Shown one piece after another: positions 2,295 to 15,067 of a stretch of DNA of 15,067 bases (positions are counted from its first letter, which is position 1; each line of letters opens with the position of its first letter). Source of the DNA: a virus. Lineage: Duplodnaviria > Heunggongvirae > Uroviricota > Caudoviricetes. The translations under genes and the position numbers were made by a program. The notes under the pieces were generated by a model. It saw nothing but the letters and a program-made list of their open reading frames with translations, was not told where the DNA came from and ran no database searches. The stretch lies in the IMG/VR virus record IMGVR_UViG_2703718826_000001. One strand, written 5' to 3'.

Positions 2295-2369
2295 GTCCTC
2301 TTAGTTAAATGGATATAACGAGCCCCTCCTAAGGGCTAATTGCAGGTTCGATTCCTGCAGGGGACACTT
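2295..2369 (+). tRNA. argW: tRNA-Arg (anticodon CCU)
   Basis: Cloverleaf readable by eye: acceptor GTCCTCT pairs with AGGGGAC, anticodon loop CTCCTAA, T-arm GGTTCGATTCC; matches E. coli argW from memory except the last two encoded nt are TT instead of CA (CCA end). Confidence 0.85.
2347..2367 (+). repeat. attL core: 21-bp direct repeat (3' end of argW)
   Basis: TTCGATTCCTGCAGGGGACAC is identical at 2347-2367 and 13946-13966; the first copy is the 3' end of the tRNA gene. Confidence 0.8.
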
Positions 2370-2480: not shown

Positions 2481-2530
2481 GTGATGGTATAAGTGATGGT
2501 ATTCCCCAGTTCGATATGCAGATACCATCA
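2481..2530. promoter_or_regulatory. putative integrase arm-type binding sites (TGATGGTAT repeats)
   Basis: GTGATGGTAT at 2481-2490 and 2493-2502 (12-bp spacing) plus an inverted copy ATACCATCA at 2522-2530; the same tandem pair recurs inside the other island end at 13873-13893. Confidence 0.45.
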
Positions 2531-2540
2531 ATTTACCAAA

Positions 2541-3827
2541 ATGAGTACAGATATGGCCATTAATGTGCTTTCCCCCAAACAGATAGAAAACGCCAAGCCG
2601 AAGACCAATGATTACAAACTTACCGATGGAGGGAGTTTGTATCTACTGGTACGAAAGACTGGTGGAAAATACTGGCGTATGAATTATCGTTTTGATGGAA
2701 AACAAGTGACATTGGCATTAGGGGTCTACCCAGATGTCTCACTTGCAACAGCGCGGAAACGGCGTGATGAAGCCAGGCAACTACTAGCCGATGGTCGTGA
2801 TCCTCGCGAAGCAAAGAAACCCAAAAAGGAAGACCCAATTTCCCCCACGTTCGAGAGTGTTGCCAGAGAGTGGCATAGTGGAACGATGGGGCATCCTGAG
2901 TGGAAAGAGATCACCCGTAAAAAAATTCTCCGAGAAATGGAAAACCACCTCTTTCCTGCCATCGGTTCAAAGCCTATCGATACGCTCAAAACCCGTGACT
3001 TGATGCCGATGCTGGTTGAGATGACTGAGAAAGGAATTGGTGCCACAACGAGCCGGGTAAAAACCACTATGACGAGCATCTTCCGTTATGCAGTGCAACG
3101 TGGAATTGTCGATTACAACCCTGCCCACGATCTAAAAGGTGCAATTACGGCCCCCAAAGTACGACATCGCCCCGCACTACCTCTCGAACGTTTACCTGAA
3201 CTGTTAGCGAAAACGAGAAGTTACACGGGAAGACCATTGACTCGCCTAGCAGTTCTCTTTTCCCTGCACACTTTTGTGCGATCCAGCGAACTACGACATG
3301 CCAGATGGGAGGAGATCGACATTGAAAATGGGCTATGGACGATACCAGGACAACGTGAAGAGATCGCAGGGGTTAAATTCTCAGATCGGGGTGCAAAGAT
3401 GGGGGCTGCTCATTATGTCCCGCTATCTAGTCAGGCTATCGGGGTACTGGAGGATATAAGGAAAATCAGTGGTGAATATCTGCTGGTTTTCCCCGGTGAC
3501 AGCAACCCATATAAACCGATGAGCGAAAACACAGTTAATAAAGCACTGCGAACGATGGGTTACGACACTCAAACTGATGTATGCTTGCATGGGTTCAGGG
3601 CGATGGCCTGCTCTGCACTGACCGAATCAGGACTCTGGTCACGCGATGCAGTTGAACGGCAGATGAGTCACCAAGAAAGAAACGAAGTGCGGGCAGCATA
3701 TGTGCATCTTGCGCAGCACATGCAGGAACGCCGCAGAATGATGCAATGGTGGTCTAATTATCTGGAACTAAATAAGGACGAATTTCATGCTCCTTATGAC
3801 TTATCAGGTATTAACATTATCAATTAA
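2541..3827 (+). CDS. P4-type tyrosine integrase (start uncertain: 2493 GTG, 2541 ATG or 2553 ATG)
   Basis: N-terminal AKPK...Y.L.DGGSLYL...KYWRMNYRFDGKQ motif typical of P4-family integrases; C-terminal catalytic-region residues (R in VRSSELRHARWEEID, HGFRAM, AAYVH); located directly 3' of the tRNA; first 48 nt of the ORF overlap the arm-site repeats, so an internal ATG is preferred. Confidence 0.85.
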   Translation: MSTDMAINVLSPKQIENAKPKTNDYKLTDGGSLYLLVRKTGGKYWRMNYRFDGKQVTLALGVYPDVSLATARKRRDEARQLLADGRDPREAKKPKKEDPISPTFESVAREWHSGTMGHPEWKEITRKKILREMENHLFPAIGSKPIDTLKTRDLMPMLVEMTEKGIGATTSRVKTTMTSIFRYAVQRGIVDYNPAHDLKGAITAPKVRHRPALPLERLPELLAKTRSYTGRPLTRLAVLFSLHTFVRSSELRHARWEEIDIENGLWTIPGQREEIAGVKFSDRGAKMGAAHYVPLSSQAIGVLEDIRKISGEYLLVFPGDSNPYKPMSENTVNKALRTMGYDTQTDVCLHGFRAMACSALTESGLWSRDAVERQMSHQERNEVRAAYVHLAQHMQERRRMMQWWSNYLELNKDEFHAPYDLSGINIIN

Positions 3828-3857
3828 ATACTCTTATAATTTAAAACAGAGGTCATA

Positions 3858-4739
3858 ATGCAGCATTCAACAGAGAATGAAACTATATTCTTAGGAAATC
3901 TATGGATTGACAAAAAAATACCACCATTAGAATATTGTTCATTTGAACGCGCTTCAAGACTATTAGAATGCGAGATTGATGATTTATTACACCTATACGA
4001 AATAGGCGCTTTTAATATCGCATTCAAGGCGGATGGACTTGCAGTTAGATTTAATGTTAATTTCCTCAATAAAAATCAGAAAATGGAAATTGACTTAATT
4101 CATCCCGTATTAACTAATCAATCACTAGAGATGGAGTTTTCAACAATATGGTATGACCTTAAAGATGATTCCTTTGAACATTTTGAAAATGGGCTTCAAA
4201 TTATAGGATTTGCCTGTGGTATTTGGTACGCCGATGATATGATAAGTGACATAAAAAATGGATTAGCTATAGATCCAGATTATGAATTCAGGCTTAAACC
4301 GGTAAAAATACGAGATAATGTTTTGATGGCAACGGCCTCATATGAAGGAAATAAGGTCATTGATATTCCATTTGAAGATCTTCTTATCATGCGAAGAGAT
4401 TTAGAGTTAATATGGAAATCAGTAAAAACTGGAATTCCTATGCCAAGTTTACTTACGAAAAGAATTTCATCTGAACCTAAAATCCCCAAGCGATTAAATA
4501 ACACTGCTGAGCATCATGCAAAAAATAGGGAGGGGTTATTAAATGCAGCCATATATATTTTAGCAAAATACCCAAGCGAATGTCGTGGTGAAAGAAAAGA
4601 GATAAGTCCTGAAAAGTGGACTAACGCCATAATTAAACATTTAGGAGAGCTACCTCCAATATTTATCACTAATGAACAAGAAATCTTAAGAAAATTACGA
4701 TTAGCGGTTAATCATGCGGGGTTAAAACAAAAGGGGTAG
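3858..4739 (+). CDS. hypothetical protein (AT-rich orphan cargo gene)
   Basis: 293-aa ORF; markedly AT-rich against GC-rich neighbours; no domain recognised. Confidence 0.6.
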   Translation: MQHSTENETIFLGNLWIDKKIPPLEYCSFERASRLLECEIDDLLHLYEIGAFNIAFKADGLAVRFNVNFLNKNQKMEIDLIHPVLTNQSLEMEFSTIWYDLKDDSFEHFENGLQIIGFACGIWYADDMISDIKNGLAIDPDYEFRLKPVKIRDNVLMATASYEGNKVIDIPFEDLLIMRRDLELIWKSVKTGIPMPSLLTKRISSEPKIPKRLNNTAEHHAKNREGLLNAAIYILAKYPSECRGERKEISPEKWTNAIIKHLGELPPIFITNEQEILRKLRLAVNHAGLKQKG

Positions 4740-4805
4740 ACTGAAACAATCTACAGGTAGAGTTGATTACACTACCTTCACAGCATTTTGATATCCCCAT
4801 AGTAT

Positions 4806-4833
4806 CTGCCGTGTTCATTACATAACACGGCAG
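4806..4833 (+). promoter_or_regulatory. inverted repeat (10-bp arms, 8-nt spacer) just upstream of alpA
   Basis: CTGCCGTGTT 4806-4815 and AACACGGCAG 4824-4833; right arm ends 8 nt before the alpA ATG and overlaps the likely ribosome-binding region. Confidence 0.35.
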
Positions 4834-4841
4834 GTAATTTC

Positions 4842-5057
4842 ATGACATTAAAAACTTATCCTATCACTGGACATGCCCGCCCACGAGCTACTGCTGACTT
4901 TTTGCAAATAAGTACGGTTACTCTCTGGCGCTGGGAAAAGAACAATCCTGAATTTCCCAAATCTATACGCATTTCAAAACGGGTATCTGTTTACGATGCA
5001 CAAGAAATTAGGCAGTGGGTTAAAGCTCAATCAGCAGGATTGGAGGAAGTAGTGTAA
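4842..5057 (+). CDS. alpA: AlpA-family phage regulatory protein (excision regulator, HTH)
   Basis: 71-aa ORF; FLQISTVTLWRWEKNNPEFPKSIRISKRVSVYDAQEIRQWV fits the AlpA/Xis-like pattern (T-I/L-Y/W ... FP.P ... R.V.W ... EI..W). Confidence 0.7.
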   Translation: MTLKTYPITGHARPRATADFLQISTVTLWRWEKNNPEFPKSIRISKRVSVYDAQEIRQWVKAQSAGLEEVV

Positions 5058-5106
5058 TGACAATATTAACAAAGCTGGGGAGAAAAAAGCCTCCCCAACG
5101 TATTAA

Positions 5107-5301
5107 TCAATTCTTTGGTTCTAAACCTCGGCTTTGTAACTCTTTGCGTAGAATGCGCTTGATCCAAGCCGCTAGCGATTCATCGCCATCCTGCTGTTGT
5201 GCTTGTTCCATCAGTTCACGCAGTTCAGGGTCAAGTCGGAACTGGAATGGCGGATTCCCACGTCTTTCATTTTTGTGTGTTGACACGTCAATTACACCCA
5301 T
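5107..5301 (-). CDS. putative ribbon-helix-helix (Arc/CopG-like) DNA-binding protein
   Basis: 64-aa ORF; PPFQFRLDPELRELMEQ ... SLAAWIKRILRKEL resembles a beta-strand/helix/helix RHH fold; divergent from the downstream small-gene operon; the competing plus-strand ORF 5057-5407 is Ser/Cys-rich and implausible. Confidence 0.5.
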   Translation of the reverse strand: MGVIDVSTHKNERRGNPPFQFRLDPELRELMEQAQQQDGDESLAAWIKRILRKELQSRGLEPKN

Positions 5302-5334
5302 TGTAATGTATTTATGTGTAATGACACATTACAC
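5289..5334. promoter_or_regulatory. operator-like dyads ATTACA-N5-TGTAAT and TGTAAT-N5-ATTACA in a divergent promoter region
   Basis: ATTACA 5291-5296 / TGTAAT 5302-5307 and TGTAAT 5317-5322 / ATTACA 5328-5333, lying between and over the start of the RHH gene and upstream of the Icd-like gene. Confidence 0.4.
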
Positions 5335-5417
5335 ACAGAAAAACAAAATAGCAACGCCCCGGAGTGTTTGCAGCAGCACCGAGGCGTCTGACCAGCACGT
5401 TATATGAGGTAACGAAG

Positions 5418-5594
5418 ATGGCTAAACAGAAGTGTACCTGGTTATTTGCGGCGATCAACCGCAGTCAACGTAATGCCCGTCCGGTGATGTTAAGGATCAT
5501 CGCAGATAACGAACGATCAGCGCGGCGCAGACTTGCCCCGGACTATGTACTGAGCTTTGCCGGGCGCATTCCCTGCGGAGGTGAACATGCGTAA
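5418..5594 (+). CDS. Icd-like host cell-division inhibitor family small protein (putative)
   Basis: 58-aa ORF from the internal ATG with GAGG upstream; pattern W.FAA..R....RPVML.I.A.NE..ARR.LA.DYVLSFAGRIP recalled as typical of Icd-like proteins in P4-like islands. Confidence 0.5.
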   Translation: MAKQKCTWLFAAINRSQRNARPVMLRIIADNERSARRRLAPDYVLSFAGRIPCGGEHA

Positions 5595-5946
5595 TTATCC
5601 GCACCCCGGCGAACGCTGGCAGCATGAACGTGGCTGGACGGTCACGATTATCCGATTAATAGAAGCCTCGCCCTCTGTGGCGCTGGTTAATCCTGAATTC
5701 AGCTGTGAAGTGCTGATACGTCATGACAGCGACAACCAGCTATCCTCCTGCCCTCTGGCATGGTTTGAACAGCGGTATACGCGCCTGTTTGATGTACCGC
5801 TCTTTAAGCCTGCACCAGCTCCTGCAGGCGGTAGTGGTTCCGGCCCGCTGACACTGCATCCGTCTGTGCTATTTATCCGCTGGCGGGAGCGTAGCATATG
5901 GCGCTCTGCTGAGCCTGACGACGGTCACTATTCAAAGTTTCTCTGA
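5587..5946 (+). CDS. hypothetical protein
   Basis: ATG at 5587 preceded by GGAGG at 5-nt spacing; overlaps the preceding stop by 8 nt; no domain recognised. Confidence 0.5.
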   Translation: MRNYPHPGERWQHERGWTVTIIRLIEASPSVALVNPEFSCEVLIRHDSDNQLSSCPLAWFEQRYTRLFDVPLFKPAPAPAGGSGSGPLTLHPSVLFIRWRERSIWRSAEPDDGHYSKFL

Positions 5947-5977
5947 CAAAATACCGCTGAAAACGGAGTAATCCACG

Positions 5978-6262
5978 ATGAATATTTCAAACGGGCACAA
6001 CGGTGCTCAGGGCCACACTTTGCCTGAAAAACACAATACCGGTGCTTTTGCCTATGGGTTGTCAGAGGACAGTTTCGGAAAGCTGACCCGCGCAAGAAAT
6101 GCCTGCGACATGCTCCAGCTTCTCTTTTCTGAATACCCGTCTCAGGCCGGAGCACTGGACGCTGGCTGTGCGCATGGTGTCGCCGCGCTGATGGAGTACC
6201 TGCTGGCAGATTTGACGGATATTGCACACAGCTGCGCACTGATTGAAGGAGGTGCCAGATGA
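5978..6262 (+). CDS. hypothetical protein
   Basis: 94-aa ORF with GGAG upstream; GC-rich like the primase operon; stop overlaps the next start (ATGA). Confidence 0.55.
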   Translation: MNISNGHNGAQGHTLPEKHNTGAFAYGLSEDSFGKLTRARNACDMLQLLFSEYPSQAGALDAGCAHGVAALMEYLLADLTDIAHSCALIEGGAR

Positions 6263-6642
6263 ACCAGCCGCAGGTTTCCATTTTCCCGGCAGAAATGACC
6301 ACCGCGCTTTACCGGCGGGCTATTGCTTCAGCATGGCGGCAGAAAATGCTGAACGAAACTGGCAGTGATCAGTATGGTCCGCACAGCCTGACGGTGGAGC
6401 GTATTGAAATGGCCATTGCGCTGCATATCGAGTGCGTACTGATTAACGAGTACGGCGAAGTGCAGGGCGCCGCTGCCGCGCTGGCACTGCTGACTGACAT
6501 GCTGGAGCCGTCACTGCTGACCGCGCCGCCGGTACTGACCGCGCGCGGCTGTGAAGTGATGGCGGAGATGTACCGCACGCTTCCGGCGGCCTTTGATGAC
6601 TTCTGCAGTACCGGTGTGACGTTGTATGAGGGGGAAGTATGA
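6259..6642 (+). CDS. hypothetical protein
   Basis: 127-aa ORF coupled at both ends by ATGA overlaps (6259-6262 and 6639-6642). Confidence 0.6.
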   Translation: MNQPQVSIFPAEMTTALYRRAIASAWRQKMLNETGSDQYGPHSLTVERIEMAIALHIECVLINEYGEVQGAAAALALLTDMLEPSLLTAPPVLTARGCEVMAEMYRTLPAAFDDFCSTGVTLYEGEV

Positions 6643-9311
6643 CAATACAGACGGTTACGCAGATTTCAGCCGCCGCACGGGGGAAATGGCCCGTTATTCT
6701 GCAGATGCTGCGTATTGATGTACCTGAAAACGGCAGGCACGGTCCCTGCCCGAAATGTGGGGGCAAGGATCGTTTTCGCCTTGATGACCTTGACGGGCGC
6801 GGGACGTGGATCTGCAGCCAGTGTGGCAATGGTGACGGTCTGGATCTGGTTAAGCTCGTAACCGGTTACAGCGTCAGAAAGGCTGCGCAGGAGGTGGCGC
6901 AGGTGCTTAATGTGCCGGATGTGCAGGAACTGCCTGTTAAGCCTGCCAGACAAAAAGCCCCTAAACGCGACATGGGTCTTACCGTGGCGGCGCTGATGAA
7001 AGAGAGCCACACGGGAGAAAGCGCCTATCTGACAGGAAAAGGGTTCGCCGGATACCCGGCCTCTCTGACCGGAAGCGTGCAGCATATCAGCGGTAAGGAT
7101 TTTCCTGCCGGTTCCCTGCTGTTACCACTCACGACCAACACCGGAGCCGTGACCGGTGCACAGCTTATCGCCCCGACGGGTGAAAAAAGCATACTGCCCG
7201 GCAGCACGATGAAAGGCGCGTTTGTGTCGCTCAGCCCGTTACCGTCTGAACCACCGGTACAGGTGGTGATTACCGAAGGTTACGCTACGGCGCTGACGGT
7301 AAGCCAGCTCACTGCCGGATGCGTAGTGGCTGCCATATCTGCGGGCAACCTGCCCAATGTGGCGCAGTCGCTGCGGGCACGCTGGCCTGAGGTAAAAATT
7401 ATCATCGCCGGTGATAACGATTTTCAGGACGGGGGTGAGAATCCCGGCAGAGCCTTTGCTGAACGGGCGGCAAAAGCTGTTGGCGGCTGGATGACGCTGC
7501 CACCAGGAGAGATTAAGGCTGACTGGAATGACTTTCATCGGGAGCACGGTATTACCCGTGCCCGTGAAGCCTTTCGCAACGGTCTGGTACTGTGCGGGGA
7601 AGGCCGCACGCAACTGCCGCACGGGTTCCGTCTTACCCAGGAATATCTCTGGTATGAAAAGCAGGTACAGCGCAACGGTGAGACGGAGATCCAGAACGTC
7701 AAAATATGCAGCCCGCTGCGCGTGACGGCAATCACCTGCGATGCCGATGGCGGTAACTTCGGACGACTGCTGGAATGGGAAGATACGTGGGGTGAGTGTC
7801 GCCGCTGGGCGATGCCGATGGAAATGCTGAGCGGCAGTGGTGAGGAACTGCGCCGGGTACTGCTGGTTAACGGGCTGTCTTATATCAGCACCACCGGTGA
7901 GGCACGCGCACGCCTGATGGAATATATCTCACTGTGTAAACCGGAACGCCGCGTGACCTGCGTCAGTCGTACTGGCTGGCATGGTCAGGTTTACGTCCTG
8001 CAGGATGAGGTCAGCGGTGAAGGTGCAGAGGGTGTCATTCTCCAGACCACTTCCGTGCAGGGGCGTGATTTCCGCGTGTCGGGCACAACAGAGGAATGGC
8101 GGGAGCATGTATCCCGCTACTGTACCGGCAACTCCCGCGTGGCATTTGCTGTCAGCCTGGCCTTTGCTGCACCACTGTTACGGCTGGTTGGTATGGACGG
8201 CGGCGGCTACCACCTCAAAGGGGAATCGACAGACGGTAAGACCACCACCATGAAAGCGGCAACCTCCGTCTGCGGCGGGCCTGACTACTGGCAGACATGG
8301 CGGGCCACCGGCAACGCGCTGGAGGGATGCGCCAGCCGCCGCAACGATGCTGCCATGATGCTTGATGAGATCCGGGAAGTTGACGGACGCGAGGCAGGCA
8401 ATATCGCCTACATGCTGGCAAACGGTCAGGGCAAGGGCCGTGCCGGTACGGACGGTGAGCTGCGTACCCGTAAGCAGTGGCGCCTGTTGTTCTTTTCAAC
8501 TGGCGAGTTGTCTCTGACCGAACATGCGGCAAAGGCCGGTGAGCGTACTTTTGCCGGGATGGAAGTCAGGATGATCCAGATCCCCAGCGATTCCGGGAAG
8601 TTTGGCGTTTTTGAGGAGCTGCACGGCTTCGACAGCGGCAAGGCTCTGGCAGAGCATCTTGAATGGGCCACGTCCTGCTACTACGGTTCGCCGTTCCGGG
8701 AGTGGCTGAAAGCACTGACCGCTGATCTTAACGGACTAACGGCACAGGCAAAATCGCTGATGAAGGAATATGCTGCCGCCCTGACTCCTAAAGATGCAGG
8801 CAATCAGGTGGGCCGGGCTGTGAACCGCTTTGCACTGGTGGCGATGGCAGGTGAACTGGCAACCCGTCTGGGTATCACCGGCTGGCCTGAGGGTGAAGCA
8901 CTGCGGGCAACCCGCGTCTGCCTGAACGCATGGCTGAAAGATCGCGGGCACACCGCCAATCAGGAAGATATCGCCGCACTGGAGCAGGTTCGCAGTTTCT
9001 TTACCGCGAATCAGTACAGCCGCTTTGCAGACTGGTATGACGAGCGCAACCGCCCCGGCAATATGGTGGGCTGGCGCAGGGTGGAGAAAGGCAGTACCGC
9101 GCAGGGCACGGAAGCTGTCACTACGTTCTATGTCATGCCGTCCGGCTGGAAAGAAATCTGCAGGGGATTTGACCCGCGCAAGGTGGCGCGTCTGTGCGTA
9201 GATCGTGGATACCTGCTGCCCTCCACTGATGGCAAACTCCAGACAACCATTCGCCCGCCAGAGATGAATCCCCGCAGGCTCTATGTCTTCAACAGCGAGG
9301 TGCCGGGTTAA
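6639..9311 (+). CDS. P4 alpha-like primase-helicase (zinc-ribbon, Toprim, DUF927/D5-like NTPase)
   Basis: 890 aa; N-terminal CPKCGG...CSQCG zinc ribbon; Toprim-like ITEGYATA and AGDND; Walker A KGESTDGKTT near 8221-8247; GC-rich. Confidence 0.9.
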   Translation: MTIQTVTQISAAARGKWPVILQMLRIDVPENGRHGPCPKCGGKDRFRLDDLDGRGTWICSQCGNGDGLDLVKLVTGYSVRKAAQEVAQVLNVPDVQELPVKPARQKAPKRDMGLTVAALMKESHTGESAYLTGKGFAGYPASLTGSVQHISGKDFPAGSLLLPLTTNTGAVTGAQLIAPTGEKSILPGSTMKGAFVSLSPLPSEPPVQVVITEGYATALTVSQLTAGCVVAAISAGNLPNVAQSLRARWPEVKIIIAGDNDFQDGGENPGRAFAERAAKAVGGWMTLPPGEIKADWNDFHREHGITRAREAFRNGLVLCGEGRTQLPHGFRLTQEYLWYEKQVQRNGETEIQNVKICSPLRVTAITCDADGGNFGRLLEWEDTWGECRRWAMPMEMLSGSGEELRRVLLVNGLSYISTTGEARARLMEYISLCKPERRVTCVSRTGWHGQVYVLQDEVSGEGAEGVILQTTSVQGRDFRVSGTTEEWREHVSRYCTGNSRVAFAVSLAFAAPLLRLVGMDGGGYHLKGESTDGKTTTMKAATSVCGGPDYWQTWRATGNALEGCASRRNDAAMMLDEIREVDGREAGNIAYMLANGQGKGRAGTDGELRTRKQWRLLFFSTGELSLTEHAAKAGERTFAGMEVRMIQIPSDSGKFGVFEELHGFDSGKALAEHLEWATSCYYGSPFREWLKALTADLNGLTAQAKSLMKEYAAALTPKDAGNQVGRAVNRFALVAMAGELATRLGITGWPEGEALRATRVCLNAWLKDRGHTANQEDIAALEQVRSFFTANQYSRFADWYDERNRPGNMVGWRRVEKGSTAQGTEAVTTFYVMPSGWKEICRGFDPRKVARLCVDRGYLLPSTDGKLQTTIRPPEMNPRRLYVFNSEVPG

Positions 9312-9711: not shown

Positions 9712-10455
9712 ATGAACAACACCGCAGTGAATAACAACCTTTCCACTTTTCCGGCTGTAACGCAGCGGGCACTGGAAACCATGAACACAGCCAGAAACGC
9801 ATGGCTTGAAGCACGTCGTCAGCAGAAAGCGGCAGCGGATAATATTGCGACAATCCGCCAGCGTCGCGCTGAAATGGAAGCCACGACGAACACACTGAAT
9901 GAGGAGTGGCGCACGCTGTTTCGTGAAAGTCAGGGCGTGGTCTCAAAGGAAATGAAAAAACTGCGCACGGAAATTGCGCTGGGACGAGAAACGCTTGAGG
10001 ATTTTGATGAGCTGCTGGCGGCTCAGGAAAGCGAAAATGCACTTTTGCCGCAGAAAGCTGCGGAATTAGCCGGAAAGTATATCCACGCGCATAACATTCT
10101 TGTGGATATTCGCGCAAAACAAATCTGGGAAGATTTTATGCAGTCGCATGGAAAAGCGCTTATTCAGACGCTGAGCCTGCTTAAATCCACAATGGGCCGG
10201 GAAGCCAGTGCCGTTGTGGGTGTGGTGAATTCAGTTAATGACCCGGACACAGTGCTGAAAGACTTTATTCATAAACATATCACCAGACCGGCTCTGGCTA
10301 ACGATGCGATGCCTGAACAGGACCCGGTGTTTAAACTGGCGGGAGTTGCCCCGGATTATGCGGCGCGTCTGGATTTCAGTAATCAACTCTCTCCGGCAGC
10401 TATGCATAAAATAAAGGTTCGTCAGGAACTTGCTGAGAAGGAGAAAGCAGTATGA
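9712..10455 (+). CDS. Sid-like putative capsid size-determination (external scaffold) protein
   Basis: 247 aa, Ala/Glu/Lys/Leu-rich and presumably helical; size and position (first gene of the late operon, before the Psu-like gene) match P4 Sid; N-terminus resembles the Psu N-terminus as I recall it. Confidence 0.55.
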   Translation: MNNTAVNNNLSTFPAVTQRALETMNTARNAWLEARRQQKAAADNIATIRQRRAEMEATTNTLNEEWRTLFRESQGVVSKEMKKLRTEIALGRETLEDFDELLAAQESENALLPQKAAELAGKYIHAHNILVDIRAKQIWEDFMQSHGKALIQTLSLLKSTMGREASAVVGVVNSVNDPDTVLKDFIHKHITRPALANDAMPEQDPVFKLAGVAPDYAARLDFSNQLSPAAMHKIKVRQELAEKEKAV

Positions 10456-11003
10456 CGGCCCGAGGCACACCTGACCAGGCACTTACCAGTTTTCGGAATG
10501 CCCGTATTCTGTGGGCCGGACATAGTGAGAGCCGAAAAGCCGTTGAACAACAGATAACATCTCTCCTCGCTGCCACAGAAAAACCAGCAGATTATGCCCG
10601 ACAGCTCGAATTACTGCGGGAACGTCTGGATGTGCTGAAATGGCAAATTAACTGTGCTGCTCGGGAATGCATTTACTCGCAGCATTTATTGATGGAGGCC
10701 TGCACAGAAGCTGCTCTCAGCAATTTTATGCAGGCGAATGGGGCAGCCCTGACATCTGCACTGGCTCCGTTCCTGAAGGGGCGCGGAGGGGTTGACGTTG
10801 CGTCCCGTATATTACGCAGTGCTCTGGTTCGCCAGCTGGCAATAACACCGCCTGAAATTGCCGGGGATTATCGTGAGATCCTGGATGAATCCGGTTTGAT
10901 GCCAGACCCCGGGATGATTCGTGATTGCCAGGGCTCTTACACCCCGGCACAACATCTGCGTTTTCAGCAACGCCTGAATGACATTAACGATATACAGGAG
11001 TGA
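10452..11003 (+). CDS. psu: Psu-like polarity suppression / capsid decoration protein
   Basis: 183 aa; motifs KWQIN, FMQANGAALTSALAP and YTPAQ match my recollection of P4 Psu; AAGGAG upstream; start overlaps the previous stop (ATGA). Confidence 0.65.
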   Translation: MTARGTPDQALTSFRNARILWAGHSESRKAVEQQITSLLAATEKPADYARQLELLRERLDVLKWQINCAARECIYSQHLLMEACTEAALSNFMQANGAALTSALAPFLKGRGGVDVASRILRSALVRQLAITPPEIAGDYREILDESGLMPDPGMIRDCQGSYTPAQHLRFQQRLNDINDIQE

Positions 11004-11008
11004 TATTA

Positions 11009-11281
11009 ATGGCACTTAAATGTCCGGAATGCGGTACAGTTGCACACGCCAGAACAGCAGCCTATGAAGCTCCGTCAGTTAAACGCTCGTGGTATCAGTG
11101 CCAGAATCTGGAATGTTCCTGCACATTTACGGCACTGGAGAGTGTGGATAAGATAATCATGAAACCCCGGCGCAATGAACAGGAACCAGACAAATCACAA
11201 ACCCCGGTAAAACAACAGCAAACGCTCAATCGCTATGGCTCCGCGTCAAAACTGTCAAGCCGTCAGCAGATTCCTGTCTAA
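11009..11281 (+). CDS. Ogr/Delta-family zinc-finger late transcription activator
   Basis: CPECG...AHARTAAY...YQCQNLECSCTF...ESV closely resembles P2 Ogr (CPLC...AHARTSRY...YHQCQNVNCSATF...ESV); AGGAG 8 nt upstream of the ATG at 11009. Confidence 0.85.
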   Translation: MALKCPECGTVAHARTAAYEAPSVKRSWYQCQNLECSCTFTALESVDKIIMKPRRNEQEPDKSQTPVKQQQTLNRYGSASKLSSRQQIPV

Positions 11282-11304
11282 TTAGAAAAAAACGCCCACG
11301 TAAT

Positions 11305-11327
11305 CCCGGTCGAGTACCGGGATTTTT
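11305..11327 (+). terminator. rho-independent terminator after the late operon
   Basis: Stem CCCGGT 11305-11310 pairing with ACCGGG 11316-11321, loop CGAGT, followed by ATTTTT 11322-11327. Confidence 0.6.
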
Positions 11328-11766
11328 AACACCTTTTCCCTGGCTGGCCTGAGAGCGCATGAGTGCATGTCTATAGCGCATGAAAACGCATGAACCTTAT
11401 GCACCATTTTTGACGAGAAAGCCCTTGTGTGGTGGCTTCTGAGACGATTTATGAGGTGCATGAAAACCAGTCTGTTAAGCGAAGCGGGCAGGCGTGCGGG
11501 GCTGTTCGCATCAACATAAAAATAACGGGCTGATATAGTTATAAAATCAAATGAACTCTTTTAGTACGACATGGGTATGTGCGCCAGTAGCAACGTCAGC
11601 CCCCAAGCTTTCTATTGTTCTTTTCTGTTGTACCATCAATACGTACCGATTAGCTCCTAAGCATCAATATCAGTTTGAACGTATTGCTTTGAACTAATTT
11701 TTAGATGATTTTTTTCATTAAAAAATTATAATGTTGTAGATAAAAAGAGAATCTTATAGAGGCGTT

Positions 11767-12615
11767 ATGTCAAATAAAGTTGATGTTTTTTTGAGCCGAG
11801 TTAGCCATGTATCACAGTTTGTATTGGTGGCATTTGCTATTTTTGGATATTTTTATACAGTAAGACCAATTTACCAAAAGGAACTTTTATCAGAAGACAT
11901 TGCAAAAAAAGAAGTTGAATTAAATAAATTAAAAACTGCAATGGAAAACTCCCAAAAATTTATAGAGAATAATAAAATCTTACGAAAAGAATTGGAGGGA
12001 AGCATTGCCAAACTTGATTTACAATACAAAGAATCAGAAGAAAAATTAAATTCAATAAATTCTGAACTAAGAAAAACTTTAAATGAACTAAATAAACAAA
12101 AGACCATTGCCAAAAGAGCGGTCAATGCAAACAACAAGAATCTTGAATCTGTTTTCTGGGAGAATTTTTCGGGGCTAGTTGGAGTAGTTTATATTTCTAA
12201 GAGCACAGATTTTGTGAACAATACACTGGGTGACGCCAAAACAGCCTATAATACTCCTAGTAATTTATATATATCTCCTTATGATGCAATTAATGAAGCA
12301 TTAAAAAATGGCAATCATAACTTTATCTCAAGTTCAGAAAATGTCCCTGAAAATATCCGCAACAAAATTCTAGCAAAGATCCGTCGCGCTATTGAAAAAA
12401 ATAAGATTTCATTAACAAAAAAACCTATCGGTTTTGATGAAAAAATTAATAGTCTGATAAAAACTATAGAGTCAACTAAGTTACGCAAAAATGAAAACGA
12501 AATAATGAAAAATAACACTGCAGAAAGAGAACTATCATCTTATATTTTCCTGATAAATGGTCAATCAAGAATCCGCGCCATGGATTTCTTAAAAGACATT
12601 CAACATTTAGACTAA
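11767..12615 (+). CDS. hypothetical membrane-anchored coiled-coil protein (cargo gene A, candidate defence component)
   Basis: 282 aa; AGAGG 4 nt upstream of ATG; one N-terminal hydrophobic helix (VSQFVLVAFAIFGYFYTV) then a Lys/Glu/Asn-rich heptad-like region; strongly AT-rich; no known domain recognised. Confidence 0.75.
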   Translation: MSNKVDVFLSRVSHVSQFVLVAFAIFGYFYTVRPIYQKELLSEDIAKKEVELNKLKTAMENSQKFIENNKILRKELEGSIAKLDLQYKESEEKLNSINSELRKTLNELNKQKTIAKRAVNANNKNLESVFWENFSGLVGVVYISKSTDFVNNTLGDAKTAYNTPSNLYISPYDAINEALKNGNHNFISSSENVPENIRNKILAKIRRAIEKNKISLTKKPIGFDEKINSLIKTIESTKLRKNENEIMKNNTAERELSSYIFLINGQSRIRAMDFLKDIQHLD

Positions 12616-12631
12616 TATTGGATATCTTATA

Positions 12632-13336
12632 ATGAATACTAATACTAAATTTGATTTATGGTTGATTAGAGTAAGTTACATTGCCCAAGTTGGATTGTTT
12701 TTTTTGACAACCTTTACAATATTTTACACAGTAATTCCGATATACCAAAATGCAAATCTGCAGGAATCAATAGCAAAAAAAGAAATCGAATATAAACAAT
12801 TACAAGACAAAGAAAAAACTCTATATTTAAAGTTAAGAAAGGAATATTCAAGAAAATATGTTGTTGATGCAATCTCCCAATGTTCTCCAACAGAAATACT
12901 TATGCGTCAACCATCTGAAGATGACAGTAAAAAATCACATGATGTAAGAATGAAGGAATTAAAAACATTTTTAAACAAAGATATAACCAGTTGCTTTGAA
13001 AAAACTTTTTATAGCAACCCTTACATTAAGGAATTAAGAGACACTGATCAACAAAATATTCTTGTTAAAATTAAAAATTTATCCCCCTCTATAACTAAAC
13101 TACATGAAAAATATAAAGCAGAATTTGATGACGATAGCAAGTTATTGAATACTGGAAAAGAAAAATCGACAAGATTAAAAGAGGTGGAAGATTATTTAAT
13201 AGGAATAGGAGGTTACACAGAAAACAGCAAAAAGGATTTTGAAAACTCATACATAGAATCTGGAGCATATGACTTGGTTGTAAGGTATGGTTTTGAAGTC
13301 AACGATCTATTTTCCAAAACCATCAGAGACAATTAA
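12632..13336 (+). CDS. hypothetical membrane-anchored protein, N-terminal paralogue of gene A (cargo gene B)
   Basis: 234 aa; begins 16 bp after gene A; N-terminal helix (IAQVGLFFLTTFTIFYTV) and the FYTV-PIYQ ... IAKKE motif shared with gene A; divergent C-terminus. Confidence 0.75.
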   Translation: MNTNTKFDLWLIRVSYIAQVGLFFLTTFTIFYTVIPIYQNANLQESIAKKEIEYKQLQDKEKTLYLKLRKEYSRKYVVDAISQCSPTEILMRQPSEDDSKKSHDVRMKELKTFLNKDITSCFEKTFYSNPYIKELRDTDQQNILVKIKNLSPSITKLHEKYKAEFDDDSKLLNTGKEKSTRLKEVEDYLIGIGGYTENSKKDFENSYIESGAYDLVVRYGFEVNDLFSKTIRDN

Positions 13337-13347
13337 TTAGGTGAACA

Positions 13348-13377
13348 ACCTCCTCTATTTTAATTAATAGAGGAGGT
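13348..13377 (+). terminator. perfect 12-bp stem-loop 3' of cargo gene B (putative terminator or RNA-stabilising hairpin)
   Basis: ACCTCCTCTATT 13348-13359, loop TTAATT, AATAGAGGAGGT 13366-13377; begins 12 nt after the stop; no clean U-tract follows. Confidence 0.45.
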
Positions 13378-13872
13378 GCTTAAATTATAAAAACATTTCA
13401 GGTTTGATTTAGATAACACGCAAATAAAAAACAAACTAATGAAATATATAAATTAATTCTTAGGTATAAAATGTTACAATTAGAATATATTTAATTTTTA
13501 ACTTTAAATCATGATAAATCTAAAAGTAAGCACCCAAAAAACCTTCAAAACACAATACGTCGTGTCTCAACCCCATGGTATTTAGGGTTAAACCAAGTTA
13601 TAGCGCTGACTGGTGAGCGGTTTGAAGTCATTCTGGTATACATAAAATGAAAAAATACATTGGGAGATATACCCCTGACTTACAGAGCTGGTAACGGTTA
13701 CCAAGTCGCATTGTGTAATGCGTGGGGTGTAAAATTTTTTGGGTATTTTTTATCCAGTAGCAGGTTAGCCTGCCCCCCCTGCTCCTAACGTTCTTTCATT
13801 CCTCTTTTCATCATTTTTAGAACGATATAAACAGATGGATCTCTATGGTTTTAATGAGTCGATTTTATCGTC

Positions 13873-13893
13873 TGATGGTATCCATGATGGTAC
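13873..13893 (+). promoter_or_regulatory. putative integrase arm-type sites at the attR end
   Basis: TGATGGTAT 13873-13881 and TGATGGTAC 13885-13893, same motif and 12-bp spacing as at 2481-2502. Confidence 0.45.
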
Positions 13894-13945
13894 CTAAGAG
13901 AGAAAATAAAAAATAATACTTAAAAAACATGAAATTATAAATACT

Positions 13946-13966
13946 TTCGATTCCTGCAGGGGACAC
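13946..13966 (+). repeat. attR core: 21-bp direct repeat (partial tRNA 3' end); probably also the attL of the next island
   Basis: Identical to 2347-2367; here followed by CA (13967-13968), i.e. the canonical tRNA CCA end. Confidence 0.8.
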
Positions 13967-14143
13967 CATGCACACCTCTCCTGAAATCTACCATACCCCA
14001 CAAAAAGCCTTTATAATCAGCACATACCCTTACTTATGTTACTCAAATAGTCGCCTTAATTCTCCTCAGGGGAACGTAAATCAAGTCACATTTGGGGGCC
14101 TATTTAGGGGCACATCTTGGTCAATCTATTGCGAGGCCCCCAG

Positions 14144-15067
14144 ATGCCACTGACAGCTCGACAAGTTGAAACAGCCAAACCCAAAGATAAAATTTATAAG
14201 ATTGCCGATGGTGGTGGGCTCTACCTTCAGGTCAATCCTAACGGCTCAAAGTACTGGCGAATGAAGTACCACTATGCGGGGAAGGAAAAGAAACTATCAT
14301 TTGGCACCTATCCAACTATTACATTGGCTGAAGCTCGCAAACGTCGGGATGAAGCCAAGAAAATACATGCCGATGGTAAAGATCCCGGTGAAGTCAAGAA
14401 AGCTGAAAATCTTGAGAAAAACCTTTCCGAAGGAAGAACTTTTGCCGCAATCGCCACCGAGTGGTACAACGCAAAAGTTTCAGGCTGGTCTGCCAGCTAC
14501 GCTGATTATGTCGACAGAGCATTCAAAAATAATGTGTTTCCCTACATTGGAAACAGACCCATTAGTGAAATCGAACCTCTTGAACTTCTCGCAGTTCTTC
14601 AGCGTATCGAAAGCCGAGGAGCCTGCGAGCTAGCTAATAAAGTTCGCCAACGATGTGGTGAAGTGTTTCGGTATGCCATTGTTACAGGTCGGGCACGATA
14701 CAATCCAGCTTCTGATCTGGTTATAGCAATGAAAAGCTATAAGCGAACACATTACCCTTTCCTGCTTCCTCCTGAACTACCAGAGTTTTTATACAAACTC
14801 GAAAACTACACCGGCAGTATTGTAACCCGTGAAGCTACAAAATTGTTGATGCTCACAGGGCTGAGAACAGTAGAATTACGTATGGGGGAATGGTGTGAGA
14901 TCGATTTTACCCAAAAGATATGGGAAGTTCCTCCGACCCGGATGAAAATGAGGAAGGAGCATATCGTCCCTCTGTCAGATCAGGCAATCCAGTCTCTGCA
15001 AATCCTCAAAGAACTGACTGGAAGATACAGATACATCTTTGCCGGAATGGATTTGCCCCTATATTTC
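14144..15067 (+). CDS. second P4-type tyrosine integrase, 3'-truncated by the window end
   Basis: Hand translation from ATG 14144 gives MPLTARQVETAKPKDKIYKIADGGGLYLQVNPNGSKYWRMKYHYAGKEKKLSFGTYP...LTGLRTVELRMGEWCEIDF... with no stop to 15067 (308 codons); N-terminus parallels the first integrase; absent from the ORF track for lack of a stop codon. Confidence 0.85.
   Translation, partial: MPLTARQVETAKPKDKIYKIADGGGLYLQVNPNGSKYWRMKYHYAGKEKKLSFGTYPTITLAEARKRRDEAKKIHADGKDPGEVKKAENLEKNLSEGRTFAAIATEWYNAKVSGWSASYADYVDRAFKNNVFPYIGNRPISEIEPLELLAVLQRIESRGACELANKVRQRCGEVFRYAIVTGRARYNPASDLVIAMKSYKRTHYPFLLPPELPEFLYKLENYTGSIVTREATKLLMLTGLRTVELRMGEWCEIDFTQKIWEVPPTRMKMRKEHIVPLSDQAIQSLQILKELTGRYRYIFAGMDLPLYF

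Follow-up and report, generated by a model that had tools for sequence, protein, structure and literature searches.

Inner-membrane superinfection-exclusion proteins of the prophage type include gp15 of HK97, Sp and Imm of T4, and SieA of P22. Here, we analyse two adjacent genes, A and B, carried by a P4-like satellite in an Escherichia coli chromosome and contained in a stretch of 15,067 nucleotides catalogued as IMG/VR record IMGVR_UViG_2703718826_000001 (hereafter the window). In P4-like satellites, the interval between psu/delta and int is the main hotspot of cargo and defence genes (PMC9122126; bioRxiv 10.64898/2026.02.27.708500). The membrane systems described in the hotspots of P4 and P2 combine a HAD hydrolase with a protein of three transmembrane segments (3TM), an RT-nitrilase with a 1TM protein, or a 2TM and a 1TM protein with a TIR protein, and their membrane proteins are the proposed effectors (Rousset et al. 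2022, PMC9122126). Our results suggest that A and B, which occupy this same hotspot, belong to a large family, so far without a name, of single-pass inner-membrane proteins, and come from two of its old C-terminal classes.

The shared N-terminal module and its family

An earlier reading of the window, made from its letters and open reading frames (the sequence-only reading), had aligned the N-termini of A and B by eye and had seen no obvious resemblance between their C-terminal parts. Both observations hold under statistical scrutiny. BLASTP aligns residues 4-56 of A with residues 6-58 of B without gaps (26 of 53 identical, E=1e-12), and this is its only significant match. The Smith-Waterman score of the N-termini is 121, against 22.8 +/- 4.4 for the shuffled N-terminus of B (z=22) and 29.6 +/- 7.0 when hydrophobic and charged segments are kept apart during the shuffling (z=13). 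Family profiles, built from alignments of 28 homologues of A and 19 of B, match over 70 N-terminal columns (probability 99.8%, E=2.9e-28). The C-terminal parts score at chance level in pairwise comparison (z=1.4), and the family alignments trimmed of the module reveal no similarity in hhalign (E=0.39, probability 0.2%). The interval given by the sequence-only reading, 11767-12760, contains all of A but reaches only into the module part of B, which ends at 13336.

This module is the best conserved part of both proteins. Mean pairwise identity in the A family is 87% in the transmembrane segment and 84% in the next 20, juxtamembrane, residues, against 34% in the stalk and 32% in the head; the corresponding values for the B family are 62%, 75%, 33%, and 28%. 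Within the A family, 15 of the 17 invariant columns lie between residues 16 and 43, the remaining two being L52 and Y172. Third codon positions under conserved residues are ~40-55% identical between lineages, and the conservation of the module thus reflects selection rather than recent transfer or spread. The sequence-only reading was right to see a homologous membrane module, but an anchor that is better conserved than the parts it carries does not behave as a passive tether. Presumably it is a functional part, and most likely the conserved working core of these proteins, the unit that assembles in the membrane.

Three parts make up the module. The first is a short positively charged stretch, D-x-[WF]-L-x-R-x-S-[HY]-x-[SA]-Q, predicted to be cytoplasmic. 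The second is a transmembrane helix ending in FGYFYTV (FTIFYTV in B), which is the one hydrophobic segment of each protein (residues ~15-32 in A and ~17-34 in B). The third is a juxtamembrane helix, P-x-Y-Q-[KN]-x-x-L-x-E-x-I-A-K-K-E, that continues into a coiled-coil-like stalk. The overall consensus reads D-x-W-L-x-R-x-S-H-x-S-Q, ~12 hydrophobic residues, and FGYFYTV-x-P-x-YQK-x-LL-x-E-x-IAKKE. Residues Q17, V32, P34, Y36, Q37, L41, and E43 (A numbering) are invariant in our alignment A1, and we provisionally define the family by an N-terminal module with these residues followed by a helical stalk.

We built a profile from the first ~57 residues of alignment A1 and scored it against 1.84 billion representative proteins; it matched at least 729 clusters (at 50% identity) with E<=1e-3 and 480 with E<=1e-10. 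A and B fall within the family, with E about 1e-30 to 1e-33. The module was near the N-terminus in all 150 of the 150 matches listed, and most of these proteins have 200-330 amino acids (aa). Searches of Pfam returned no family for A, B, or 126 diverse members beyond stray coiled-coil matches, and those of NCBIfam and PHROGs gave nothing specific for A, B, or family members. The carriers seen span several bacterial phyla and include Enterobacterales, Marinicella, Lysobacter, Advenella, Polaromonas, Burkholderia plasmids, Nitrospira, Pseudodesulfovibrio, and a Porphyromonadaceae genome; to our knowledge, all these groups are double-membrane bacteria. The loci discussed below came in part from scans of contigs, which provided 10 loci from genome contigs (with a narrow back-translated pattern) and 10 from viral contigs. 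A tblastn search of plasmids with A gave two weak Burkholderia matches, restricted to the module, and a further protein search with the module profile found fragments of at most 103 aa and no annotated full-length member.

What follows the module is much more diverse. BLAST clustering of the post-module parts produced 31 components, the two largest being of B type (63 members) and of A type (62 members). Comparison with hhalign grouped components 0, 2, 3, 8, 9, and 10 into a B-like superclass and components 1, 6, and 7 into an A-like one, with no link between the two. B-like proteins are ~5 times as frequent as A-like ones among the representative-only matches, and the consensus of the 126 diverse members retains a pair of cysteines and B's L...D...L motif. 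Hence, B is the usual form of the family, whereas A, with its long stalk, is less common.

AlphaFold2 predicts for A a single helix from residue 3 to 155, covering the transmembrane segment and the stalk, and a helical head at residues 156-282 (mean pLDDT 86.5), and for B a helix at residues 6-84 and a helical head at residues 85-234 (mean pLDDT 87.6), the long single helices being those of monomer predictions. In a partly redundant set of 199 proteins, the N-terminal flank of the membrane segment has a mean of 4.7 K/R versus 1.7 D/E, the first 15 residues past the membrane have a net charge of -0.5, and the N side is the more positive in 95% of cases. Cysteine counts after the module are strongly even (none in 66 proteins, one in 7, two in 93, three in 9, and four in 20). 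From this charge bias, the even cysteines, and the pair C84/C121 of B, we infer that the N-terminus is cytoplasmic and the C-terminus periplasmic. Such an orientation would put the stalk and the all-helical head, putatively disulfide-bonded in B, in the periplasm. The C-terminal domains that the sequence-only reading called soluble, and correctly saw as unrelated between A and B, are thus most likely periplasmic. Foldseek found nothing for B among viral structures at E<=0.001, and neither A nor B resembled in sequence or fold any solved or viral structure searched.

The A-B cassette in enterobacterial satellites

The two genes recur together. A is followed by B on the same strand, 9-18 nt apart where the distance could be cleanly measured, in E. 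coli (the window, L001, L020), Salmonella (L030/31), Enterobacter hormaechei (L037), Cronobacter (L035/36), an IMG/VR contig (L022), and two metagenomic enterobacterial contigs, where the pair lies among toxin and immunity genes (L005) or beside an integrase fragment (L040). This order was verified in 6 divergent lineages, and B adjoins A in 6 of the 7 enterobacterial A-type lineages inspected. The cassette of Enterobacterales is mostly found just downstream of delta in P4-like satellites, as in L035 and in satellites with different primases (L030, L037). Outside the module, the identities of A and of B drop in parallel from ~80% to ~25% (r=0.95, 28 comparisons between 8 pairs, two of which, P0018/P0062 and P0027/P0067, were matched up only by the equal lengths of their contigs). 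Together with the fixed pairing, this parallel divergence implies that the cassette was long inherited as a unit and moved between satellites with different primases. It fits a functional unit, possibly a heteromer.

The pairing might also arise without any A-B complex, if A and B were independent single-gene functions lying side by side, each a homo-oligomer with its own specificity. We regard this as unlikely, if worth serious consideration. A-like single genes were found in Pantoea, Marinicella, Advenella, Porphyromonadaceae, and Pseudodesulfovibrio, and B-like ones in Pectobacterium, Klebsiella indica, Nitrospira, Polaromonas, L032, and L038. Genes of the two types thus stand alone in many genomes (L002, L007/L017, L008-L011, L013, L015, L032), with a B-type gene following delta without a preceding A gene in L038, and the other classes are single in all loci seen (L016, L025-L029). 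Yet, independent functions would not readily account for the fixed order, the narrow spacing, and the parallel divergence to ~25% identity over at least six lineages and several kinds of elements, nor for the presence of B beside A in nearly all the A-type enterobacterial lineages. Since linkage alone could yield parallel divergence, these observations weaken the explanation by independent functions.

Some further observations concern the relations between module copies. Four single genes, encoding P0049, P0050 (L002 6001-6708), P0051, and P0082 (L008 6001-6708), have a B-type C-terminal part and an A-type or mixed module: P0082 joins an A-type transmembrane segment to the B-type YQNASLQESIAKKE, and the switch occurs after AKKEVE in P0051. 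These genes might descend from an A-B tandem, through recombination between its two modules or as deletion products, or might represent an older state. Third-position identity between the two module copies is 0.67 in the window (n=24) and 0.33 in L005 and L022, which gives no consistent signal of gene conversion or recent recombination between the copies of A and B. In the draft genome of Citrobacter sp. Res13-Sevr-PEB04-36, A is cut at the end of one contig (L006) and B lies near the start of another (L014, 637-1341), which puts an assembly break inside the cassette.

The window consists of E. coli chromosome (mlaA, yfdC, and tRNA-Arg) with an inserted satellite of ~11.6 kb flanked by a 21-nt direct repeat (Table 1). 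The positions of these att repeats place A and B between delta and attR, and the gene order of the circular form is delta - A - B - att - int, which is that of the hotspot, whose cargo begins downstream of Delta. The segment of A and B has a GC content of ~0.29 versus ~0.55 in the satellite core, and the cassette is carried by only 7 of 5426 complete E. coli genomes. A and B thus have the variable occurrence and the foreign base composition of hotspot cargo. A near-identical element with the same layout is present in strain NCTC11023, where it ends right after gene B and the att end is followed by dsdC. Neither inside A and B nor in the gap that separates them is there another + strand open reading frame (ORF) of 40 aa or more. 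The stem-loop past B lacks a U-tract and was not called by the terminator scan, but likely marks the end of the A-B transcription unit. Promoter predictions around A and B were at the level expected by chance in AT-rich DNA, and an Rfam scan of 11200-14200 found nothing.

Table 1. Coordinates of the A-B cassette and of the satellite features in the window
Feature	Coordinates	Strand	Evidence or remark
Gene A, 282 aa	11767-12615	+	ORF; 58 homologues
A module, aa 1-57	11767-11937	+	N-terminal shared region
A transmembrane segment, aa 15-32, VSQFVLVAFAIFGYFYTV	11809-11862	+	hydropathy
A juxtamembrane motif, RPIYQKELLSEDIAKKE	11863-11913	+	directly after the transmembrane segment
Gene B, 234 aa	12632-13336	+	ORF; 17 homologues
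B module, aa 1-59	12632-12808	+	N-terminal shared region
B transmembrane segment, aa 17-34	12680-12733	+	hydropathy
B invariant cysteines, Cys84 and Cys121	12881-12883; 12992-12994	+	invariant columns of the B family alignment
Perfect 11-bp stem-loop, 13 nt past the B stop codon	13349-13376	+	RNA fold -21.4 kcal/mol, z=-5.9
tRNA-Arg (CCT), integration site	2295-2367	+	ARAGORN
Left att repeat, 3' end of tRNA-Arg	2347-2367	+	direct repeat D2
Satellite integrase	2493-3827	+	Pfam Arm-DNA-bind_3, Phage_int_M, Phage_integrase
Alpha-type primase/helicase	6639-9311	+	Pfam Zn_Ribbon_Prim, Toprim_3, DUF927; phrog_1139 E=4e-183
Sid-like; Psu; Delta (Ogr/Delta zinc-finger)	9712-10455; 10452-11003; 11000-11281	+	Pfam Psu, Ogr_Delta; phrog_6165, phrog_6366, phrog_603
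Right att repeat TTCGATTCCTGCAGGGGACAC, copy of the tRNA 3' end, satellite end	13946-13966	+	direct repeat D2

Several other features of the window deserve mention. Directly 3' of the satellite integrase lies a + strand ORF of 293 aa (3858-4739), AT-rich (GC 0.33-0.41), which has no match in Pfam, NCBIfam, PADLOC, or PHROG and is labelled hypothetical by RefSeq in NCTC11023. This ORF marks a possible second cargo slot in the satellite. Past the right att, a second integrase gene starts near 14145 and extends beyond ORF 14274-14633, with an Arm-type N-terminus recognizable by eye, MPLTARQVETAKPKDKIYKIADGGGLYLQV. Its presence in the segment 13946-15067 suggests a second island in tandem at the duplicated 3' end of tRNA-Arg, where NCTC11023 has dsdC instead. 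A 30-nt imperfect direct repeat (73% identity) has one copy inside the primase gene (8875-8904) and the other between delta and A (11337-11366). A search of the whole window for the cos sequence expected of P4/P2, allowing up to 3 mismatches, gave no match.

Genomic positions and candidate functions

The relatives of A and B are often found where prophages and satellites carry accessory genes. Four prophage contigs that are related to each other (L025-L028) have a module gene beginning at, or overlapping, the integrase stop codon, and in L025 the repressor (phrog_4), phrog_3989, the integrase, and the module gene follow each other in one direction. The module gene of L029 separates a Q-like antiterminator from the small terminase and is read from the opposite strand; this is a classic accessory-gene position of lambdoid phages. 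In L016 the module gene adjoins the tail-sheath gene of a P2-type tail cluster, and further relatives lie beside integrases (including L032 and L040) or Ogr/Delta genes. Some of these loci hold further genes of note. In L016, two + strand genes of 319 and 96 aa (2675-3921) stand between the tube and sheath genes, and after the module gene comes a gene (6184-6981) whose 265-aa product contains a hydrophobic segment in its interior and matches no family. In L024, the post-integrase module gene (7998-8773) is split into ORFs of 58 and 194 aa, probably by a frameshift, and downstream ORFs of 449 and 755 aa, the latter with an ATPase-like N-terminus, could be other cargo.

We propose that A and B assemble together in the inner membrane, bear variable heads in the periplasm, and counter phages at the level of the envelope. 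As a whole, this proposal falls a little short of an even chance in our estimate, and we put it forward tentatively. The cassette would be expressed from the resident element, and its two products would come together by way of the shared module and the first part of the stalk. The stalks and heads would be the fast-evolving, interchangeable parts that confer specificity. The assembled proteins might act on incoming phages at the envelope by blocking genome entry, as in superinfection exclusion, or alternatively might disturb the membrane once entry is sensed in the periplasm. The homology of the modules, the size of the family, its pattern of conservation, the linkage of the two genes, and their genomic positions are observed, whereas topology, co-assembly, and an anti-phage role are what we infer for A and B, and the argument for defence is entirely one of position. 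The hotspot itself gives weight to it, because 6 of 8 randomly chosen loci of unknown function and 8 of 11 candidate systems tested from P4 hotspots gave protection against phages (10.64898/2026.02.27.708500).

A number of observations weigh against this proposal. PADLOC-DB v2 has no match for A or B at E<=0.1, and we found no homology between the module family and the phage-resistance proteins of the PADLOC models. A and B are not among the systems validated in PMC9122126 or 10.64898/2026.02.27.708500, and none of those named in the latter, a preprint, resembles them; nor are their RefSeq accessions mentioned in the literature searched or in the portions of the supplements of PMC9122126 that the search covered. 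A tblastn search of 50,697 phage genomes (INPHARED) with A and B found no relative. The occurrence of A-like and B-like classes alone elsewhere indicates that the family does not require co-assembly, and the argument on topology is one of charge and cysteine counts. Some neighbourhoods also point elsewhere: the pair of L005 lies among colicin/cloacin immunity genes and a PAAR-pyocin S toxin gene, L017 is beside a contact-dependent inhibition (CDI) toxin locus, L039 is near an Rhs toxin, and in L003 (Pseudodesulfovibrio indicus, 2883-6633) a 210-aa member lies on the same strand 20 nt after an RND efflux pump gene (ACR_tran), which does not look like mobile cargo. Finally, ~25 distinct loci were inspected of the 729 clusters.

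These neighbourhoods fit an envelope function unrelated to phages, such as immunity to bacteriocins that act in the periplasm or to contact-dependent toxins, or some other trait of lysogenic conversion. Variable periplasmic heads would lend themselves to the recognition of imported toxins as well. We consider this function improbable, because the best-sampled positions are the psu/delta-int hotspot of P4 and the accessory slots of prophages, because so many of the P4 hotspot loci tested were protective, and because no cognate toxin gene is consistently adjacent to the members of the family.

The proposal of an envelope-level defence can be extended, in a form that we find doubtful, to the family as a whole. 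The module would be a self-contained membrane effector of proteins that survey the envelope. Their interchangeable periplasmic heads would sense an incoming phage outside the cytoplasm (by its tail tip, its ejection proteins, or the damage to the cell wall), upon which the anchor would shut off the route of entry or dissipate the membrane potential. In A and B, heads of different reach, on stalks of ~120 and ~50 residues, would be mounted on one hetero-oligomeric anchor. The family would then be a modular, periplasm-sensing immune family of prophages and satellites across several phyla of double-membrane bacteria.

The sequence-only reading had explained A and B by a tandem duplication followed by divergence of the soluble domains. 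A recent duplication of this kind inside the satellite, with rapid C-terminal divergence, is suggested by the fact that the genes are same-strand neighbours with similar N-termini, but we now find it very improbable. The module DNA of the two genes is 61% identical, with no identical run longer than 12 nt, and the C-terminal profiles are unrelated in hhalign, including from cluster to cluster. Membership of a family of at least 729 clusters also speaks against it, as do the single-gene relatives of each class in distant bacteria, other phyla among them (Marinicella, Advenella, and Porphyromonadaceae for the A-like class; Nitrospira, Polaromonas, and Pectobacterium for the B-like class). The module variants typical of A and of B are found in single genes as well, and the B-type F-T-I-F-Y-T-V-I-P of the integrase-adjacent P0143 therefore counts against a recent origin of the pair. 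Most simply, the family is old and comprises several C-terminal classes, and either two of these were joined in Enterobacterales or an old pair of paralogues was kept. As for a lysis pair, either an inner-membrane spanin or a holin with its antiholin, it is scarcely credible: the architecture matches (N-in/C-out anchor, periplasmic coiled coil, cysteines) and A weakly matches the Rz-like spanin family phrog_89 (E=0.006, 17.5 bits), but this match is below a useful threshold and covers the coiled coil only, no ORF for an outer-membrane lipoprotein partner lies inside or next to the genes on the + strand, Pfam gives no match to a holin or a spanin, the relatives lie in a repressor-integrase operon or opposite late genes rather than in lysis cassettes, and P4-type satellites depend on their helper phage for lysis.

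Comparison with described systems

Several known pairs of membrane proteins resemble A and B in design. FtsB/FtsL and PilN/PilO are single-pass pairs that dimerise via their transmembrane and coiled-coil segments. They have adjacent genes, an N-in/C-out anchor, a coiled coil, and a small periplasmic domain, and they offer a plausible model for the co-assembly of A and B. Yet, they are parts of housekeeping machines and not homologous to A and B, which are mobile cargo. Pfam DivIC matches neither A nor B, and 2 of the 126 diverse members at E about 1e-5, which is consistent with shared architecture only. The Rz spanin and the T4 holin T/antiholin RI also have a single N-terminal transmembrane segment, a periplasmic helical domain, and cysteines, but differ from A and B in the points raised above, as only the sub-threshold coiled-coil match (E=0.006) links them to a gene that has neither a lipoprotein partner, nor a lysis cassette, nor a Pfam match. 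TolA/TonB-type proteins carry an SHLS motif in their transmembrane helix, with S followed by H at +4, L at +11, and S at +15. In A, S10 and H14 fit this pattern, but the two remaining positions are V21 and I25, and the histidine of A is a tyrosine in B and an asparagine or glutamine in many members.

In architecture, the superinfection-exclusion proteins of the inner membrane are, with the Rz-type spanins and the housekeeping pairs, the closest to A and B. Like A and B, the exclusion proteins are small membrane-anchored accessory products of resident elements; they are expressed from these and act at the inner membrane or in the periplasm, as we propose for A and B, and relatives of A and B are found in a repressor-integrase operon. 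Unlike them, A and B form a paralogous pair and have an anchor that is deeply conserved in hundreds of clusters across phyla. The transmembrane systems of the P4/P2 hotspots share with A and B the hotspot, the type of carrier element, and the use of membrane proteins. These systems pair their membrane protein with an enzyme or a sensor, whereas A and B have no enzymatic partner and no PADLOC match.

Overall, at least 729 clusters of proteins without a name in domain or defence databases recur in accessory slots of satellites and prophages of several phyla. The conservation of their anchor and the fast change of their periplasmic parts are unusual and suggest that the mechanism in the membrane is common to all, while the parts for recognition can be exchanged. 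Should the family prove defensive, the catalogue of defence systems would gain a class that works at the envelope without an enzyme, and many hotspot genes now called hypothetical could be annotated. If it is not, it is still a widespread family of mobile elements that can be put to the test. In both cases, the cassette is small, at 1.6 kb, and easily cloned. Compared with what has been described, the hotspot that holds the two-gene cassette was known; what is new is the family itself, which is large, has no name, and has the membrane anchor as its conserved element.

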